Shown here in pieces: positions 3,460 through 54,152 of a DNA stretch of 64,000 bases. The DNA is taken from NCBI GenBank assembly GCA_050287605.1, contig JBNKCG010000037.1, positions 5,389 through 69,388 on the forward strand, given 5' to 3'. The translations under genes were made by a program, and so were the position numbers. Within the stretch, counting starts at the first letter, position 1. Each line of letters opens with the position of its first letter. This DNA comes from Gammaproteobacteria bacterium. Its GTDB lineage: Bacteria > Pseudomonadota > Gammaproteobacteria > QQUJ01. The notes beneath the pieces were generated by a model that saw nothing but the letters and a program-made list of their open reading frames with translations, was not told the DNA's origin and did not search any database.

Positions 3460-4069
3460 TACGTACTCCTCGAATAAAGGCGGCGATCTTAGCGGCATCC
3501 TTGATCCCCTTGGACGCCTCCACCCCGCCGCTCACATCCACCGCATCGGGATGGACTTGGCGGATCGCCTCTGCCACGTTATCCGGCGTCAGCCCGCCGG
3601 CCAGCACGATGGGTCGCGAACGCGTTGCGGGAATCCGACCCCAATCGAAGCGCATCCCGGTTCCCCCGTAGACACCCGGCTGGTAGGCATCCAGCAGAAT
3701 ACCCGCCGCGTCGGCGTAGTCGGCCATCACCCGCTCCAGCACTACCCCTTCGCGCATGCGCACTGCTTTGAGGTAGGGGCGGCGATAACGGCGGCATGCG
3801 TCCGGTGTCTCGTCACCGTGAAACTGCAGCATCCCCAGCGCAACCTGCTCGAGTACGTCTTCGACGAATGCGGGTTCAGGATTGACGAACAACCCCACCA
3901 CGGTAACCAGGGGCGGTAGCTGCTCCACCACCGCCCGCGCCTGTTCGACGCTGGCGTTACGCGGACTCGGCGGATAGAACACAATGCCGATGGCATCGGC
4001 CCCCAACCGAGCGGCGTCCACCCCGTCTTCGGGGCGGGTGATGCCACAGATTTTGATGCGTGTGCCCAC
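3443..4069 (-). CDS. trpF: N-(5'-phosphoribosyl)anthranilate isomerase
   Basis: 208 aa. [16 protein letters not shown]...[15 protein letters not shown]...QFHGDE...[11 protein letters not shown] is a TrpF TIM-barrel signature. Confidence 0.9.
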
Positions 4070-4215
4070 GGAATCGGCTGTCAGAAAAGGCGTTGAGCGT
4101 ACCAGAAATTCGAGCGAACCAATACTCGCAATTCAACCATACAGCGGCACGCCCGGGGCGCGCCTCGCGTCAGTCCGCGATACACCAGAACACCTCGCAT
4201 CACGGCCTCTGCGGT

Positions 4216-4983
4216 TCATCCAAGCGGCAACCCGAAGCGCGCCGGGTATTCCACCGCCATGAAGTAGAGCCCCTGCGGCGGAGCGGTCACGCCACCGAGG
4301 GACCGATCCCGGTACTCCAACACTTCGCGGGACCATTCGGGTTCACGCTCACTGCTGCCGATGGTGATCAACACGCCCGCGATGTTGCGAACCATGTGAT
4401 GCAGAAACGCGTTGGCTTCGATGTCGATGGCGATCACGTCACCGCTGCGTTCGACGCTCAGGCGGTGCACGGTGCGCACCGGACTCTTTGCCTGGCACGC
4501 CACCGCGCGGTACGAGGAAAAATCGTGCTCGCCGAGCAGATACTCGCCGCCTGTCTGCATGCGCCGGGCATCCAGCGGTTTGTGGATCCAGCTCATGCGG
4601 TTGCGCTGCAGCCCAGGGCGCACCCAGCGGTTGAGGATCAGGTAGCGATAGTGGCGTTTGACCGCGCCAAAGCGGGCGTGAAAATCATCCGCTACCGGTC
4701 GGGCCCAGGTTACCGTGAGATCCGGCGCAAGATTGGCGTTGCTGCCCAGTACCCAGGAGCGCTCGCTGCGCGCCGCATCAGTATCGAAATGCACGACCTG
4801 TCCGACGCCGTGCACGCCGGCGTCGGTGCGTCCGGCGCAAACCACCTGTATCGGGTGGTCGGCCACCCGGGAGAGCGCTTGCTCGAGGCATTCCTGCACG
4901 GTGCGCACACCCGCTTGGCGTTGCCAGCCGCTGAAGTCGGTACCGTCGTATTCGACGCCCAGCGCAACTCTCACTACCCGCAC
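4216..4983 (-). CDS. truA: tRNA pseudouridine(38-40) synthase
   Basis: 255 aa. LGVEYDGTDFSGWQRQ...VVCAGRTDAGVHGVGQVVHFD has the catalytic Asp in the RTDAGVH motif. Confidence 0.9.
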   Translation of the reverse strand: MRVVRVALGVEYDGTDFSGWQRQAGVRTVQECLEQALSRVADHPIQVVCAGRTDAGVHGVGQVVHFDTDAARSERSWVLGSNANLAPDLTVTWARPVADDFHARFGAVKRHYRYLILNRWVRPGLQRNRMSWIHKPLDARRMQTGGEYLLGEHDFSSYRAVACQAKSPVRTVHRLSVERSGDVIAIDIEANAFLHHMVRNIAGVLITIGSSEREPEWSREVLEYRDRSLGGVTAPPQGLYFMAVEYPARFGLPLG

Positions 4984-5000
4984 CTCGGCACGATGGAATC

Positions 5001-5032
5001 GTCCAAAACGAAAGGAGGGTCAGAGACCCTCC
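5001..5032 (-). terminator. Putative rho-independent terminator downstream of fimV
   Basis: 9-bp perfect stem aggagggtc / gaccctcct with a 3-nt loop. On the minus strand it is followed by tcgttttgg. Lies between the fimV stop (5091) and the truA start (4983). Confidence 0.45.
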
Positions 5033-5090
5033 TTCAACTGTCGGCGCAAACCCGCCGTAAGGGGCGGCTACCGCGCTACTGACCCGCGAT

Positions 5091-7991
5091 CTAGAGACTG
5101 GCGAGCAAATTCTCCGCCTCTTTGCGCTGCGCATCGCTGCCCTCTTTGGTGACCTCGTCGAGGATGTTGCGCGCGCCATCGGCATCACCCATATCGATAT
5201 AGGCCTTGGCCAGATCGAGCTTGGTTGCCACCATATCGGCTTCGCCGTCGCTCCCGCTCTCGTCCAGCGGTACGGCCGTGAAATCCAGGACCGCGGTCGA
5301 TTCGAGATCTTCGGTCGGTTCGGCGACGTGAGCGCCGCTGAGATCGGCTTCGTCCTCGTCGGGGACATCGGGAACCTCGAGCCCCATCCCGGTAATATCC
5401 CACTCGATGGAGAAATCGCGGTCTTCCGCCATCGAGGCATCGTCCGGCTCCACCGCCGCCGGCTCCTCGGCCTCGGCCGCCGGTGCGCCGGCTTCCTGGC
5501 GAAGTTTGTCGGTGTCGGTCTGGATGGTATCCAGTTCGAGATCGAAATCGGTCGAGCTGAGATCGGTGGCCGCGCTCGGCTCGTTGCCGAAATCGAGGTC
5601 CAGTCCGGAATCCTCCTCCTCGGCGGCAGTAGCCCCATCGAAGGCGAGATCCAGTCCCTCCTCCTCTTCGTCGTCCTGATCCGCGCCCAACAGCGTGGCA
5701 TCGAATTCCAACGCCTGCGACGGCTCACCCTCGATCTCGGGCAGCTCAAGCTCAGCTTCCTCTTCCGCCTCACCTTCACCGAGGTCAAAATCGAAATCCA
5801 GGCCTTGGTCATCCTCAGCCGCGGCTTCGGCATCCGCTTTCGCCTCGACGGCCCTTGCATCGAATCCGCCCATGTCGAATTCCACGCTCATGTCGTCATC
5901 GTCGGAGACCGCGGCCTCGGACTCAGACTCGGCCTGCGCCGCTTCACCGAACGGATCGAAGTCGATCCCGGTGTCCAGCGCTCCCGGCGGCAGCGTACTT
6001 TCGGCATCTGCCATCATGCCCGACCCGCCGCCGAACAGCGGATTGCCCGGACAGAGATCCTGGCCCATGAGCTGCAGCTTGTCCCACTCGGCGCCGCCGG
6101 CCGCCTGCAGTTCGCCGTGCACCTCTTCCACGACCGCCTCGAAGGCTTCACGGTCACGGGTGGCAAAATAGACCTCGAGAAGCTTGCCCTTCAGATCGGT
6201 GCGATCCGGGTGCTCTTCGAGCGTGCCCTTGATCAGCTCCTCGGCCTGCTGATAGCGTCCGTAGGCGAGGTAGACGTCTGCCTCGGCGATTACCTGCTCG
6301 ACGCCGCCCTTCTCCTCGTCGGACGCACGCGGCTCCTCTGCCTCAGGCTCATCGAAATCGGCGACCTCCATGGCTTCCGCGGCTGCCAAGATGTCGTCGT
6401 CGAGCACGACACCCTCCGCCCCGCCGTCATCGTCGGCAAAGGCGGTGCTGAAATCGGACGGTTGCGCCGCACGATCGCCACGGTGACGCACCATGAAGAA
6501 CAACAACAGCACCAGCAACAGCACGCCGCCGCCCACCGCGCCGAGCATGACCGGATCTCCCATCAGGATACCCAGCAGGTAGTCGCCGAAGCCTTTGGAG
6601 CTGGGTGCGGGCGCCGGGACCGGCTGCGGTGCGGGCGCGGGGGGAGTTGGTGTCGCTGCCTGGGGCGGCGGACTGGCCGCCTCGCCTTGCGTCGTCTCGG
6701 CCGCGGGCGCAGGCTGCTCGGCAGCGGGGGCCGCCTCGGAGCTGGCCGTCTCAGGCATCGCGGGCTCGGTTGCCGATGCGGCGGGCGTCTCCGTCGGCGC
6801 CGGCTCCGCGGCGGCAGGGGCGGATTCCGTCATCGCCGGCGCAGCCGCTTCCGCAGGGGTACCCTGCGCGCCTTCCTGCGCCTGCTTCAGCTGTGCCTGC
6901 AACGCGGCAAGTTCGTCGACCTTCAGCGTCACCATACGCTGCATGTCCGCCAGCTTCTCTTCCAGTTCGGAGACCTGGTTACGCAGCTCTTCGTTCTCCA
7001 GCCGCCGCGCTTCGGCCGCCTCCTTGGCTAGCGCCAGTTCGTGGTCCAGCCCGCCGGCTCCGCCGCCTGCGGCCTGTTCGCTGCCGGCGCCCCCACCCTC
7101 GGCGCCATCCTCGCTCTTGGGTGCCACCACCTCCAGGCGCGGTTGGGGTGCGGAAGCCATGGCCCCGGAATCGCCGCTCCCCGCGACGCGCTGCTGGCGA
7201 TAGGTCCGCCACTCGGCCACCTGGCGTCGTACCTCGGCGACGGCCTCCGCCTGATCGACGCTGAGCGCCTCCTGGGCGCTCGGGATGCGCAGCACGTAAC
7301 CCTCTTTCAACAAGTTGATGTTGTCGTTGATGAAGGCGTCGGGATTGGCGCGCAGGTAGGCCAGCATCGCCTGTTGTTCGCTCACCGACGCGCCGGCGAG
7401 CGTATCGCGCGCGATGGTCAGGAGATTGTCACCGCGGCGCACGCGATATTCGTCGGCTGCCGCCGGCATCATCCGCGTCGCGGGCATGGCGCGCGGCATG
7501 GTGGTCGATTGGGTCGGCGTCGCCGGCATCGTGGACTGCATAGGGGCCATCTGCGGGGGAGCCGCTGTGGGAGCCTGCACCGCCGGGGCGGCTTCGCGGG
7601 TTACGACGGGGGGATCCAGCAGCAGTGTGTACTCGCGCAGCAGACGGCCGTTCGGCCATTCAACCTTGAGCAGAAAACTGACGAAGGGCTCGCGAAACGC
7701 CTCCTTGGTGGTGATTTTGACGATGGTCTTGTCACCGCGCTGCGCGGTGGCGAAATTGAGACTGGCCAGGATAAAGGGACGATCGAGCCCGGCCTGTTCG
7801 AACTCTTCCCGCGACGCCAAGTTGACGCGCAGCTTTTCCAGGTCGCCGGGTTCCACGGAGCGCAATTCAACCTCAGCGTCCAACGGTTCGTTCAGTCGCG
7901 AATGTAGCGTGATTGCGCCGAGTCCGAGGGCGTGCGCGCCAGCGATGGGCAACAACGCAATCGCCAACGCCAACAACAGCTTCCGAAACAT
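5091..7991 (-). CDS. fimV: FimV-family peptidoglycan-binding protein (type IV pilus assembly / polar landmark), start at MFRKLLL
   Basis: Signal peptide, then a LysM motif (YRVRRGDNLLTIARD...LLKEGYVLRIP). Has a central Ala/Pro/Glu-rich low-complexity region, a single TM segment (LLGILMGDPVMLGAVGGGVLLLVLLLFF), a very acidic repeat region and the conserved FimV C-terminal motif KLDLAKAYIDMGDADGARNILDEV. Position between asd and truA matches Pseudomonas. The ORF-track start at 8096 is an over-extension. Confidence 0.8.
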   Translation of the reverse strand: MFRKLLLALAIALLPIAGAHALGLGAITLHSRLNEPLDAEVELRSVEPGDLEKLRVNLASREEFEQAGLDRPFILASLNFATAQRGDKTIVKITTKEAFREPFVSFLLKVEWPNGRLLREYTLLLDPPVVTREAAPAVQAPTAAPPQMAPMQSTMPATPTQSTTMPRAMPATRMMPAAADEYRVRRGDNLLTIARDTLAGASVSEQQAMLAYLRANPDAFINDNINLLKEGYVLRIPSAQEALSVDQAEAVAEVRRQVAEWRTYRQQRVAGSGDSGAMASAPQPRLEVVAPKSEDGAEGGGAGSEQAAGGGAGGLDHELALAKEAAEARRLENEELRNQVSELEEKLADMQRMVTLKVDELAALQAQLKQAQEGAQGTPAEAAAPAMTESAPAAAEPAPTETPAASATEPAMPETASSEAAPAAEQPAPAAETTQGEAASPPPQAATPTPPAPAPQPVPAPAPSSKGFGDYLLGILMGDPVMLGAVGGGVLLLVLLLFFMVRHRGDRAAQPSDFSTAFADDDGGAEGVVLDDDILAAAEAMEVADFDEPEAEEPRASDEEKGGVEQVIAEADVYLAYGRYQQAEELIKGTLEEHPDRTDLKGKLLEVYFATRDREAFEAVVEEVHGELQAAGGAEWDKLQLMGQDLCPGNPLFGGGSGMMADAESTLPPGALDTGIDFDPFGEAAQAESESEAAVSDDDDMSVEFDMGGFDARAVEAKADAEAAAEDDQGLDFDFDLGEGEAEEEAELELPEIEGEPSQALEFDATLLGADQDDEEEEGLDLAFDGATAAEEEDSGLDLDFGNEPSAATDLSSTDFDLELDTIQTDTDKLRQEAGAPAAEAEEPAAVEPDDASMAEDRDFSIEWDITGMGLEVPDVPDEDEADLSGAHVAEPTEDLESTAVLDFTAVPLDESGSDGEADMVATKLDLAKAYIDMGDADGARNILDEVTKEGSDAQRKEAENLLASL

Positions 7992-51628: not shown

Positions 51629-51946
51629 TCACCCGCAATTGCAGGCGCGCAGAAATTGACCGGGAAGCAGCAGATTGAAGCGCGCGATACCCTCTTCTTC
51701 GCGAACGCGGTTGAAGACCTCGCAGCTCATGCAGGAGAGGCGGCTGGCAGCGAACGAACCCTGGACGATGCCGTCGCTGTAGGTGCCAGCGATCGCCCAG
51801 CAGATGCGACCACCGTTGACACCCCCGTTGAGACCGTCGGCGTCGCAGGCGGCCGCGGTGGCGCAGACCCCCAGCAGCTCTGCCGCCGCACCGCCGGGTT
51901 CACGTCCGCAGCCCTTGATCTGCCAACAGTTGAGTCGTTCGCTCAT
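51629..51946 (-). CDS. Small cysteine/tryptophan-rich protein with two CW motifs (two-CW-like metal/redox-binding domain)
   Basis: 105 aa with 9 Cys: NCWQIKGCG...CATAAAC...RICWAIAGT...CMSCEVF...ACNCG. Strong RBS ggaggagg 7 nt upstream of the ATG. Composition is unlike antisense-artefact ORFs. Confidence 0.6.
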   Translation of the reverse strand: MSERLNCWQIKGCGREPGGAAAELLGVCATAAACDADGLNGGVNGGRICWAIAGTYSDGIVQGSFAASRLSCMSCEVFNRVREEEGIARFNLLLPGQFLRACNCG

Positions 51947-52174: not shown

Positions 52175-53482
52175 CTACCAGTAGCTCAGGGCGTTGGCGT
52201 AGAGCTCCGCGAGCACGGTCTGGTCCACGGGGCGCGGCGCGTTCTTCAACAGCCGCTGCTGGGCGTAGGCCCCCTCCACCAGTCCGCCGATATCGCCCGC
52301 ATCGTAGCCCACACCGCCAACGCCGTTAGGCATCGCGGTGGCACGCATCAACCCCTCCAGGTGCCGGGCCACCAACTCACCGGCATCCTCCGGGGCCACG
52401 TCGCGCACCTCGGCGCCCAGCAGCTGAGCCCCTTCCAGGTGACGTTCGGGACAGGCGCTGCCGGTAAAGCGGAACGCCGCGGGGGCGTTGACGATGACCG
52501 ACATACCGTGGGGGCAGATGGGTTCGTCCGCAGGATAGCCCTCGGGCTGGAACCCCTTCACCAGACCCGCCACCGAGTAGGACATGCCGTGGGGGATGTG
52601 GACTCCGGCATTGCCGAACGCCAGGCCGGCCAGGGTGGCGGCGAACATCATGCCGTCGCGCGCCTCGTGGTCGGCGGCGTCGGCCACCGCGCGCACCAGA
52701 AAGCGCCCCGCCAACCGCAGCGCCTCGCGGCAGCCGATGTCGCTCCAGGGGTTGGCCCCCTGGCTCATGGGCCGCAGGTGCGGCTGGTCGGGTCGCGCGC
52801 GCTGCGTGTAGGGGATGGCGGTGAAGCTCTCCAGGGCGTGGCTCAACACGTCAAAGCCGCTGGCCGCCACCACATTGGCCGGCAGCGTATAGGTGGTAGT
52901 GGGATCGATGACCGCCCGGGTGGGGCGTAGCGCGCGGTGGGCGATGCCGGTCTTGGCGCGCATCGCCAGCAGATCGAATACCGCGATGCCGGTGCATTCG
53001 CTGCCGGTACCGGAGGTGGTCGGGCAGGCGATGTGCGGCTTCAACGGCCCCGGCGGGGCGATGCCGTTGCCGATGGGCGGGTTGACGTAGTCCATGAACT
53101 CGGCCGGCCAGGTGCTGTAGAGGTTGGCCGCCTTGCAGGTGTCGATGACCGAGCCACCGCCCACGGAGACGAAACCGTCAAAATCGCCTTCGCTGGCAAA
53201 GCGTGCCGCGGCGGCGAACGAGCGGTCCGTAGGCTCGACCCGCACCTCGTCGTAGACCGCGACGTCCACCCCGGCCGCGCGCAGCGACTCCTGCACGCGC
53301 GCCACGTGGCCTTGCGCCACAACCCCGGCGTCGGTGTAGAGCGCCACCCGCCGGAGTCCCAGGACGCGCGCATCGTCGCCCACTTCGCGCAGGGCGCCGG
53401 GACCGAATTTGATCGCCGAGGCGTCGACGCTGAACACCTCATCGCCGTGCTCGGTCAGCGCGTAGTAGTGACAGCAACCCAT
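52175..53482 (-). CDS. Iron-containing alcohol dehydrogenase family protein (hydroxyacid-oxoacid transhydrogenase-like)
   Basis: 435 aa. [14 protein letters not shown](P)-binding motif and His-rich metal site ([14 protein letters not shown]...HG). Confidence 0.85.
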
Positions 53483-53523
53483 GAAACCACCCTCCTCCCG
53501 GCCGTGCGCACGGATCAGTCTGT

Positions 53524-53794
53524 TTAGGGCCTGTTAACACTAGTCGCATAGGCCCTGCTGAGTCTCATTTTTTGTCCAGCAAGGCAGAATGAGCGAGGTG
53601 TAGCCCCGCTACATGAGCGAATGATAACGCCGCTGGGCGGAAAAGGAGGCTCAGCCCTTCGGGTTGCACCTGAAAACACGCCACTCGGCGTTGCTCGTCG
53701 CTCATTTGGAGTTACCAAACTTCGCTCCTCGCGCCTGGATTGGCGCGTTTTCAGGCACAACAGGACCTATGCGACTAGTGCTAACAGGCCCTAA
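53524..53794. mobile_element. MITE-like miniature inverted-repeat element (about 271 bp) with 29-bp terminal inverted repeats
   Basis: Left end ttagggcctgttaacactagtcgcatagg. Right end cctatgcgactagtgctaacaggccctaa (28 of 29 complementary). Nested internal inverted repeats (cctgaaaacacgcc / ggcgcgttttcagg). No ORF. The PilZ TAG stop lies within the right end. Confidence 0.5.
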
Positions 53795-54072
53795 GTCGCC
53801 TCTTGCGGAGGCTCCTCTACGAAGCGTAGCCCGATTCCGGTAGGTTCCAGGCGCACCACCTCCATGGTCACCACCGGCAGATCATCCACCGGGCCCTGGA
53901 CCTGGCCCTGCACCACGGTGCCCACGGGCGGGATAGGATCGCCGCTGGTGATGAGGAAGACTCCGCCATCCGACACGTCGCGGGTGGTGAAGATCACCGA
54001 ACCGATGGAGTCGTGCCAGACGCGTACCTTGATGCTGACCGCCGTGCGTAAGTGTTGTCGTTTTTCGTGCAT
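53791..54072 (-). CDS. PilZ-domain protein (c-di-GMP binding), start at MHEKRQHL
   Basis: 93 aa. RxxxR motif (RQHLR) and D-x-S-x-x-G motif (DVSDGG). Confidence 0.75.
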   Translation of the reverse strand: MHEKRQHLRTAVSIKVRVWHDSIGSVIFTTRDVSDGGVFLITSGDPIPPVGTVVQGQVQGPVDDLPVVTMEVVRLEPTGIGLRFVEEPPQEAT

Positions 54073-54152
54073 AGCGACGCCGCTGAAGTGATGTTGTCGG
54101 GTGGGCACACGATACCGCGCCCCGCGCCAAGAGTATCAGCCCGGCAAGGATT

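Follow-up and report, generated by a model that had tools for sequence, protein, structure and literature searches.

In the 64,000-nucleotide stretch of DNA analysed here (the window), a PilZ-domain gene and an Fe-ADH family gene are separated by an odd spacer of 308 nt, and the question raised by this locus is what fills it and whether it matters to either gene. A first-pass annotation had described a non-coding block of 271 bp at this position (53524-53794), bounded by near-perfect 29-bp inverted repeats with nested internal palindromes, and had proposed that it could be a MITE, a REP/ERIC-like repeat or a long structured RNA acting on Fe-ADH. The two genes are:

53791-54108, minus strand: PilZ-domain gene (PF07238, E 9e-11), likely start ATG at 54072 (93 aa)
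52175-53482, minus strand: Fe-ADH family gene, hydroxyacid-oxoacid transhydrogenase-like (PF00465, E 1.5e-41), downstream of the insertion

The block is very probably a copy of a non-autonomous MITE lodged in the TAA stop codon of PilZ, and the enzyme most likely to mobilise it in trans is a transposase of the ISSod6/ISAba31 type. This reading draws on the insertion itself, membership in a family of similar elements, the target preference of that family, IS termini that match those of the block, recent mobility of the family elsewhere and covariation in its fold. The type of element is ordinary; what is notable about the family is its presence in several phyla, a length held near 269 bp and the conservation of a complex fold.

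The terminal arms of the block, TTAGGGCCTGTTAACACTAGTCGCATAGG (53524-53552) and its opposite-strand partner (53766-53794), are identical at 28 of 29 positions, for which the expected number of chance matches is 0 (100 shuffles of the window), and in blastn the inverted repeat reaches 34-37 nt with mismatches. A repeat scan of the window returned nested inverted repeats inside the block (53663-53686/53738-53761 and 53588-53608/53686-53706); the terminal pair is absent from the list of that scan. Both the near-perfect repeats and the nested palindromes of the first-pass annotation are thus real features of the sequence. The block is poorer in GC than the window (55% vs. 64%) and folds far better than shuffled sequences on both strands (z = -10.9 and -10.2), the value in the sense direction to Fe-ADH being -156 kcal/mol (z = -10.9). 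In agreement with its description as non-coding, none of its internal ORFs (46-78 aa) has a Pfam match, and the 78-aa ORF has only six spurious look-alikes among 5.8 billion proteins. The six are 'hypothetical proteins' of the protein database (P0121-P0126), two of which come with annotations in Ca. Thiodiazotropha MAGs, and all are gene-calling artefacts translated from the MITE. The element is small and gene-free, with no transposase and no other gene.

The extent of 271 bp holds for the repeats but not for the boundaries: the core of the element is 265 bp (53527-53791) with a TA on each side, and the outermost bases of the block, T53524 and A53794, are target-site bases outside the element. 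Its parts are:

53525-53526: left TA, presumed copy of the target-site duplication, on the Fe-ADH side (sequence, and excision restoring TAA)
53792-53793: right TA, presumed copy of the target-site duplication; on the minus strand, this TA and G53791 of the element spell the PilZ TAG
53527-53791, plus strand: MITE core, 265 bp; the family orientation is that of the strand with CCCTTCGGG (family HMM)
53527-53554, plus strand: left terminal inverted repeat and 5' half of stem P1 (repeat match, alignment, fold)
53763-53791, plus strand: right terminal inverted repeat and 3' half of stem P1 (repeat match, alignment, fold)
53563-53649, plus strand: left hairpin domain P2, stem 53563-53580/53632-53649 (RNAalifold and pair counts, 74 copies)
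53598-53603/53609-53614, plus strand: P2 tip hairpin (RNAalifold and pair counts, 74 copies)
53579-53584 and 53625-53630, plus strand: P2 boxes CAAGGC and TAACGC, respectively
53652-53667, plus strand: central mini-hairpin CAGCCCTTCGGGTTGC, at the symmetry centre (alignment)
53663-53761, plus strand: right hairpin domain P3, base GTTG/CAAC at 53663-53666/53758-53761, stem 53668-53686/53738-53756
53705-53709/53715-53719, plus strand: P3 tip hairpin; the boxes in P3 are GCGTTGC and GCGCC-TGG

That the block is an insertion can be seen from relatives. Five syntenic loci (L001-L005), reached via the closest retrievable relatives of the Fe-ADH protein and belonging to two related lineages, lack the element, and their PilZ-to-Fe-ADH spacer is 38 or 45 nt vs. 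308 nt in the window. Fe-ADH is 88% identical to that of the window in L001 and L002, and 81% identical in L003-L005. The gene order of L001 is that of the window (Asn-synthase, GNAT/ATP-grasp, M42 peptidase, PilZ, Fe-ADH, a 105-aa Cys-rich ORF and a GGDEF-EAL protein), with identities of 93, 76 and 68%, respectively, for the M42 peptidase, PilZ and the 105-aa ORF. The latter (MSERLNCWQIKGCGREPGG..., 51629-51946, minus strand) lies just downstream of Fe-ADH, in the same place as in L001, where no Pfam match is recorded for its counterpart.

The gene coordinates agree with the earlier placement of the block in the PilZ to Fe-ADH spacer, where it was said to supply the PilZ TAG: this stop codon is the reverse complement of 53791-53793 and is made up of a flanking TA and the opening G of the element. 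In silico excision of 53527-53793 (the core and one TA) yields ...GAG GCG ACT TAA followed by a 41-nt spacer, such that PilZ ends in ...EAT-TAA and the locus is colinear with the empty-site relatives; with both TAs removed, PilZ reads in frame into Fe-ADH with no stop. The simplest history would be an insertion into the TA of the PilZ TAA stop codon with duplication of that TA, since loss of both TAs leaves PilZ-Fe-ADH stopless and one retained TA restores TAA. TA being palindromic, the sequence alone cannot separate a duplication from an extension of the repeat, and our call of a duplication is based on the stop-codon reconstruction together with the 2-bp duplication reported for ISAba31 (PMC4776018). 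The target of the window copy was the TA in the ancestral TAA stop of PilZ. As the first base of the element is G, this stop now reads TAG, which leaves the length of PilZ unchanged; the spacer to Fe-ADH has been lengthened from about 41 to 308 nt. PilZ is intact, its length saved by the element's own stop codon. On the other side, the purine-rich Shine-Dalgarno-like stretch of Fe-ADH (GGGAGGAGGG, 53490-53499) is intact and its start codon, 42 nt from the element, is unaltered. The odd spacer of the window is best seen as a transposon scar, not a regulator.

PilZ and Fe-ADH are probably co-transcribed, as suggested by the short spacers of the relatives. If so, 269 nt of their transcript are predicted to fold, as RNA, with an energy of about -150 kcal/mol, and an effect on Fe-ADH expression, if any, would be a side-effect of a stable structure in this probable joint transcript. 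By analogy with Correia and ERIC sequences, the element could create an RNase processing site or change mRNA stability.

Exact scans with 25 nt of the window's repeat gave no match in genome contigs or metagenome contigs; the inner part of the repeat is variable. The family was found by sensitive blastn against plasmids and then with a degenerate two-anchor pattern (the shared end plus the central hairpin), run over one genome per species, which matches at least 120 genomic stretches. The search and extraction patterns fixed the TAGG..TGTT start, the central CCYTTCGGGTT, the ...CCTA end and the flanking TA, so the invariance of these columns is partly by construction; the independently found plasmid copies (blastn) and ISs (protein search) have the same ends and TA flanks too, and five of six plasmid copies from the independent blastn have the central mini-hairpin. 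Full-length plasmid homologues of about 269 bp (64-74% identity, blastn) occur in Halomonas, in Azotobacter chroococcum and on a P. aeruginosa megaplasmid, alongside a 206-bp variant in Magnetococcus and a truncated copy on a Methylophaga IncP plasmid; family members are found on conjugative plasmids, and a search of the phage collection gave no match. Hosts among the matches listed include Gammaproteobacteria (Ca. Thiodiazotropha, Woeseiaceae, Halomonas/Vreelandella, Pseudomonas, Azotobacter, Methylophaga, Psychromonas, Colwellia, Cellvibrionaceae and Lysobacter), Betaproteobacteria (Variovorax, Nitrosospira, Comamonas and Iodobacter), Acidobacteriota (Terracidiphilus and Korobacteraceae) and one Rhodothermales MAG.

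Length is held within narrow limits, with 64 of the 90 complete copies listed measuring 268-270 bp and 70 of them 267-271 bp. The nearest relatives of the window copy among the matches listed are in a Thiotrichales MAG (86% identity) and in Ca. Thiodiazotropha (84-86%). Against the family HMM, which was built from alignment A2 (74 copies, that of the window included), it scores 225 bits on the plus strand and 112 bits on the minus strand. Among the variants, those of 180-206 bp retain the two terminal repeats and lack either the right domain (L061 4193-4374, L062 4122-4303, L112 1082-1261) or the left one (L008 2935-3140), and long variants of 282-334 bp carry internal insertions (L024, L055, L057, L104, L120).

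In six genomes, with 2-4 copies each, copies at different loci of the same genome are 97-99.6% identical, which points to recent movement of the family; the 64 kb of the window hold one copy. Together with homologues at unrelated loci in other genomes, the empty sites, the TA duplication and the IS5-family ISs with matching ends described below, these near-identical copies bear out the MITE-like reading of the first-pass annotation, and the block is not a single-copy spacer present at the same place in all relatives. Among 89 reconstructed targets, CTAG accounts for 34, TTAG for 18, CTAA for 16 and TTAA for 9, making YTAR the target in 77 of 89, and the base outside the flanking TA is non-random. 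Many copies overlap the stop codon of the neighbouring gene by exactly 3 nt, as expected if TAA and TAG stops are tolerated YTAR targets in GC-rich genomes. The repeated siting on stop codons is explained by the YTAR target, and supplying a stop is therefore a habit of the family and not a peculiarity of the PilZ locus. In the Rhodothermales MAG (L074), a copy at 7216-7482 sits on the stop codon of ftsZ (gene 5959-7218), whose TAG is made of the flanking TA and the first G of the element, exactly as for PilZ in the window.

The distribution of these copies bears on the proposal that the block is a cis-regulatory leader RNA of Fe-ADH, riboswitch-like or an attenuator, closed by the 29-bp helix. 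Its position 42 nt upstream of the start codon and its very stable sense fold would suit such a role. However, relatives with the PilZ-Fe-ADH arrangement lack the block, the family orientation is antisense to Fe-ADH, and family copies lie beside unrelated genes (ftsZ, acyl-CoA dehydrogenase/CaiB) in both orientations. Rfam 15 gives no match up to E = 10 in the region and none at gathering score in the window. We consider a leader of this kind extremely improbable and, because copies flank unrelated genes either way and the same operon of the relatives is free of the element, a dedicated Fe-ADH regulatory RNA is rejected. A match to Rfam sR39 at 53947-54002 falls within the PilZ coding sequence and, with 20 bits vs. 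a threshold of 50, is due to chance.

The termini of the family, TA followed by GGGYCTGTTRAC..., are common to IS5-family ISs of about 860-890 bp of the ISSod6/ISAba31 type, which we take to belong to the IS427 group. ISSod6 (Shewanella oneidensis) agrees with MITE copies L033 and L104 over all of the terminal 19 nt (19/19). A metagenome scan using an alignment of seven ISSod6/ISAba31-type transposases as query yielded about 55 complete ISs, mostly of 860-890 bp, with ends of the form TA-GGG(C/G/T)(C/G/T)TGTTGA(C/T)... and TA flanks, several of which match MITE terminal repeats exactly (e.g. TAGGGTCTGTTGACATTT and TAGGGCCTGTTGACAATTC). ISAba31 is described as an element of 858 bp with repeats GGGTGTGTTGACACTT/AAGTGTCAACAGACCC, a 2-bp duplication and a transposase with DUF4096 and DDE domains (PMC4776018). 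Its ends are TA-GGGTGTGTTGACAC...GTGTCAACAGACCC-TA and its transposase domains DUF4096 and DDE_Tnp_1; the copy that we retrieved, aac-TA-GGGTGTGTTGAC...GTCAACAGACCC-TA-gtt, lies on the TAG stop of a gene, and its plasmid relatives have the same kind of ends. The first-pass annotation called for a search for a cognate transposase with matching repeats, and autonomous IS5-family elements with matching terminal repeats do exist. The window's exact TTAACAC repeat variant occurs in none of the ISs found, and the link between the window copy and the ISs is made by the outer 11 nt and by bridging MITE copies with TTGACACTA.

These ISs share with the MITE the TA-GGG(N)(N)TGTTGA(C/T)... termini, the TA flanks, YTAR/CTAG-like targets and a tendency to sit on stop codons. 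They differ from it in encoding a transposase of 248-252 aa, where the MITE encodes nothing, and the likeness ends about 25 nt in from the termini: the family HMM aligns to the ISs over these ~25 terminal nt only, and blastn of ISSod6 against MITE copies agrees. The interior being unrelated to that of the ISs, the element is not a simple deletion derivative, and we rejected an origin by deletion from an ISSod6/ISAba31-type IS, as the subterminal IS sequence is missing from the MITE interior and the ends alone are common to both. A regular-expression search for a DUF4096-type motif found none in 131 family loci or in the 64-kb window. Two repeat pairs 1.3-2.1 kb apart are chance matches around ftsZ and ordinary genes. 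We propose that a DDE transposase of the ISSod6/ISAba31 type most likely moves the MITE in trans; it would recognise termini of the GGGYCTGTTRAC form and duplicate the TA within a YTAR target. On one metagenome contig (L171), an ISSod6-type IS (601-1359) abuts a partial MITE (1357-1480, family HMM positions 137-262), an arrangement that could reflect insertion of the IS into the MITE, or a chimera.

A TA duplication combined with a preference for CTAG-like targets is classically a mark of IS630, and the target counts (n = 89) could accordingly be read as the work of a transposase of the IS630/Tc1-mariner type, as for Correia or RUP, in place of an IS5-family enzyme. One copy, on the Azotobacter chroococcum HR1 plasmid (L011), is even abutted at its TA by an IS630-family IS. 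This is the sole IS630 seen, however, and its termini (GTGTTATGACACAGC) are unrelated to those of the MITE, whereas dozens of ISSod6/ISAba31-type ISs match the MITE ends over up to 19/19 nt, TA flanks included. The TA/CTAG signature here is therefore attributed to the IS5-family group, and mobilisation by an IS630-type enzyme appears very unlikely. The L011 MITE itself (about 3986-4213) has lost its left end, and the IS630-family IS (4256-5391) sits exactly at the TA of its right end, two TA-targeting elements sharing one site.

Comparison with known small elements helps to place the family. Correia elements (CREE/NEMIS) resemble it in being small, with terminal inverted repeats and TA flanks, near genes, co-transcribed and able to form long hairpins; RNase III processes Correia transcripts, which can influence the expression of neighbouring genes. 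They are, however, simple hairpins of 100-155 bp confined to Neisseria, with no identified parent transposase, whereas the present family, ~269 bp long and with three domains, occurs in several phyla and is clearly related to ISs of the IS5 family. The transposases of PIF/Harbinger elements are related to those of IS5, and the terminal repeats of Tourist elements, of the GGCCTTGTT... kind, seem to resemble GGGCCTGTT...; the use of TA-containing insertion targets is a further likeness between Tourist MITEs and our family, from which the former differ in being eukaryotic and in making a 3-bp TAA/TTA duplication. Among bacterial MITEs, TIMEs and IMU are of comparable size (250-290 bp), are found on plasmids and are mobilised in trans by a related transposase (PMC3184786, PMC4133298); they derive from Tn3-family transposons or have ISSod9-like repeats. 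Their 38-bp Tn3-type repeats starting with GGGG and their 5-bp duplication are both missing from the window MITE.

An intergenic, palindromic block at the 3' end of a gene also invites comparison with REP/ERIC-type sequences, host repeats kept for mRNA stabilisation or the binding of nucleoid proteins and not transposons. REP units measure 20-65 bp and ERIC has a 127-bp enterobacterial consensus. On inspection, size, termini and host range set the block apart from REP/BIME and ERIC: 269 bp is far above the size of REP units, the terminal repeats are of the IS type with TA flanks, the family crosses phyla and travels on conjugative plasmids, and near-identical copies in the same genome indicate recent transposition. 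We give next to no credence to a host repeat, and this part of the earlier proposal falls away.

What the family conserves beyond its ends is a fold. The consensus, derived from alignment A2 (74 copies), consists of a terminal stem of about 30 bp, the left hairpin domain, a central CC-TTCG-GG mini-hairpin and the right hairpin domain, at the base of which GTTG pairs with an invariant CAAC. The terminal stem combines the conserved repeat with a hypervariable yet complementary extension; in the left arm of P1, the outer ~18 nt are kept family-wide and the inner part is variable yet still complementary. A point overlooked in the first-pass annotation is that its repeat is part of this ~30-bp family-wide stem, with the transposase-type repeat limited to the outer ~18 nt. 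Changes on both sides are seen for 68 of the 85 predicted pairs (74 copies), including all 17 + 6 pairs of P2 (RNAalifold and pair counts). Paired cells make up 92%, vs. 35-44% in controls with the partners displaced by 1-3 columns; the covariation score is 0.577 vs. 0.09-0.14 in these controls, and none of 500 shuffles does as well. The two arms of the element are diverged reverse complements of each other, and complementarity also links the conserved boxes (CAAGGC with GCCTTG, TAACGC with GCGTTG). With DNA energy parameters the window copy takes the same architecture. Not an IS remnant, the interior is a quasi-palindromic module able to fold from either strand, and the combination of strict length and a covarying three-domain fold exceeds what mobilisation by terminal repeats alone requires.

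Several processes might account for this. The fold may be maintained if propagation is limited to copies able to fold, for example as a DNA hairpin or cruciform in which the ends come together; it may be kept because transcripts that collapse into an inert structure are better tolerated in operons; or template switching in quasi-palindromes may copy changes from one arm to the other without selection. Between close copies, changes are less dense in paired than in unpaired columns, and double changes account for 9 of 52 paired-position events. This pattern is compatible with propagation by folding and with template switching alike, and does not separate them. The family is a good test case for whether MITE structure is selected, for transposition or transcript tolerance, or is a product of template switching.

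The same features raise the possibility that the interior is a functional structured RNA or ssDNA with an activity of its own, e.g. in controlling or helping the transposase or through an effect on host transcripts, spread by the terminal repeats; this would be compatible with MITE status but claims more about the interior. Covariation is extensive in every helix, the length is near-fixed at 268-270 bp across phyla, paired columns change less densely between close copies, and boxes outside the search pattern are conserved (CAAGGC, TAACGC, GCGTTGC, GCGCCTTG, CAAC). The central loop is of the C(UUCG)G type, and the consensus fold is better on the plus strand (-116.5 vs. -94.9 kcal/mol), mainly because of the left domain. 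Against this, the single-sequence energies are equal on both strands (-154.6 and -154.0 kcal/mol) and the 74 pairs common to the predictions for the two strands show no strand bias (G-U 126, A-C 133). A raw excess of G-U over A-C (338 vs. 150) was dismissed as a strand signal, being an artefact of one-strand folding that is gone in the both-strand helices. Orientation relative to flanking genes is likewise unbiased (++ 14, -- 24, -+ divergent 21, +- convergent 16, counted with a crude purpose-made gene caller), and variants without either hairpin domain exist. The window copy has no sigma-70-like promoter and no terminator-like site; the GCGCC-loop-GGCGC-TTTT hairpin of the consensus was discarded as a terminator, as the window copy fails the terminator scan. 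No Rfam family was matched, the other family members giving only spurious hits to plant miRNA hairpins. We therefore regard an interior with its own RNA or ssDNA activity as quite improbable, and the evidence does not favour either a single-strand RNA gene or a cis-regulator.

A broader version, in which the ~230-nt interior is functional, either as a folded module whose hairpin or cruciform is recognised by a host factor or by the ISSod6/ISAba31-type transposition machinery, or as an RNA, seems unlikely to us and is put forward tentatively. If true, a need for folding would explain why the length is fixed, why the boxes are conserved and why 68 pairs covary across at least three phyla, and the family would be an undescribed class of structured mobile element and not a decaying IS remnant.

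The non-autonomous MITE that we recognise in the PilZ-Fe-ADH spacer belongs to a family that is common in environmental Gamma- and Betaproteobacteria and Acidobacteriota and is sometimes miscalled as a hypothetical protein. No named family for these MITEs was found in Rfam or the searchable literature, an ISfinder entry being possible, and an annotation model would therefore remove recurrent false ncRNA and ORF calls. An identity with Coxiella QMITE1/2 was rejected, as these are different elements. In Pseudomonas fluorescens PS691 (L049), a different palindrome of about 147 bp (4179-4325), some 2 kb from a family copy, matches the plant MIR1437 hairpin model on both strands (E ~1e-8, far below gathering score) and is presumably another MITE-like element. 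Lastly, the primers used to delete the lpg2920-21 toxin-antitoxin operon of Legionella pneumophila (PMC12457610) end in ...TTTAGGGTCTGTTGAC, and a MITE of this family, or its IS, appears to lie immediately beside that operon, on its downstream side.
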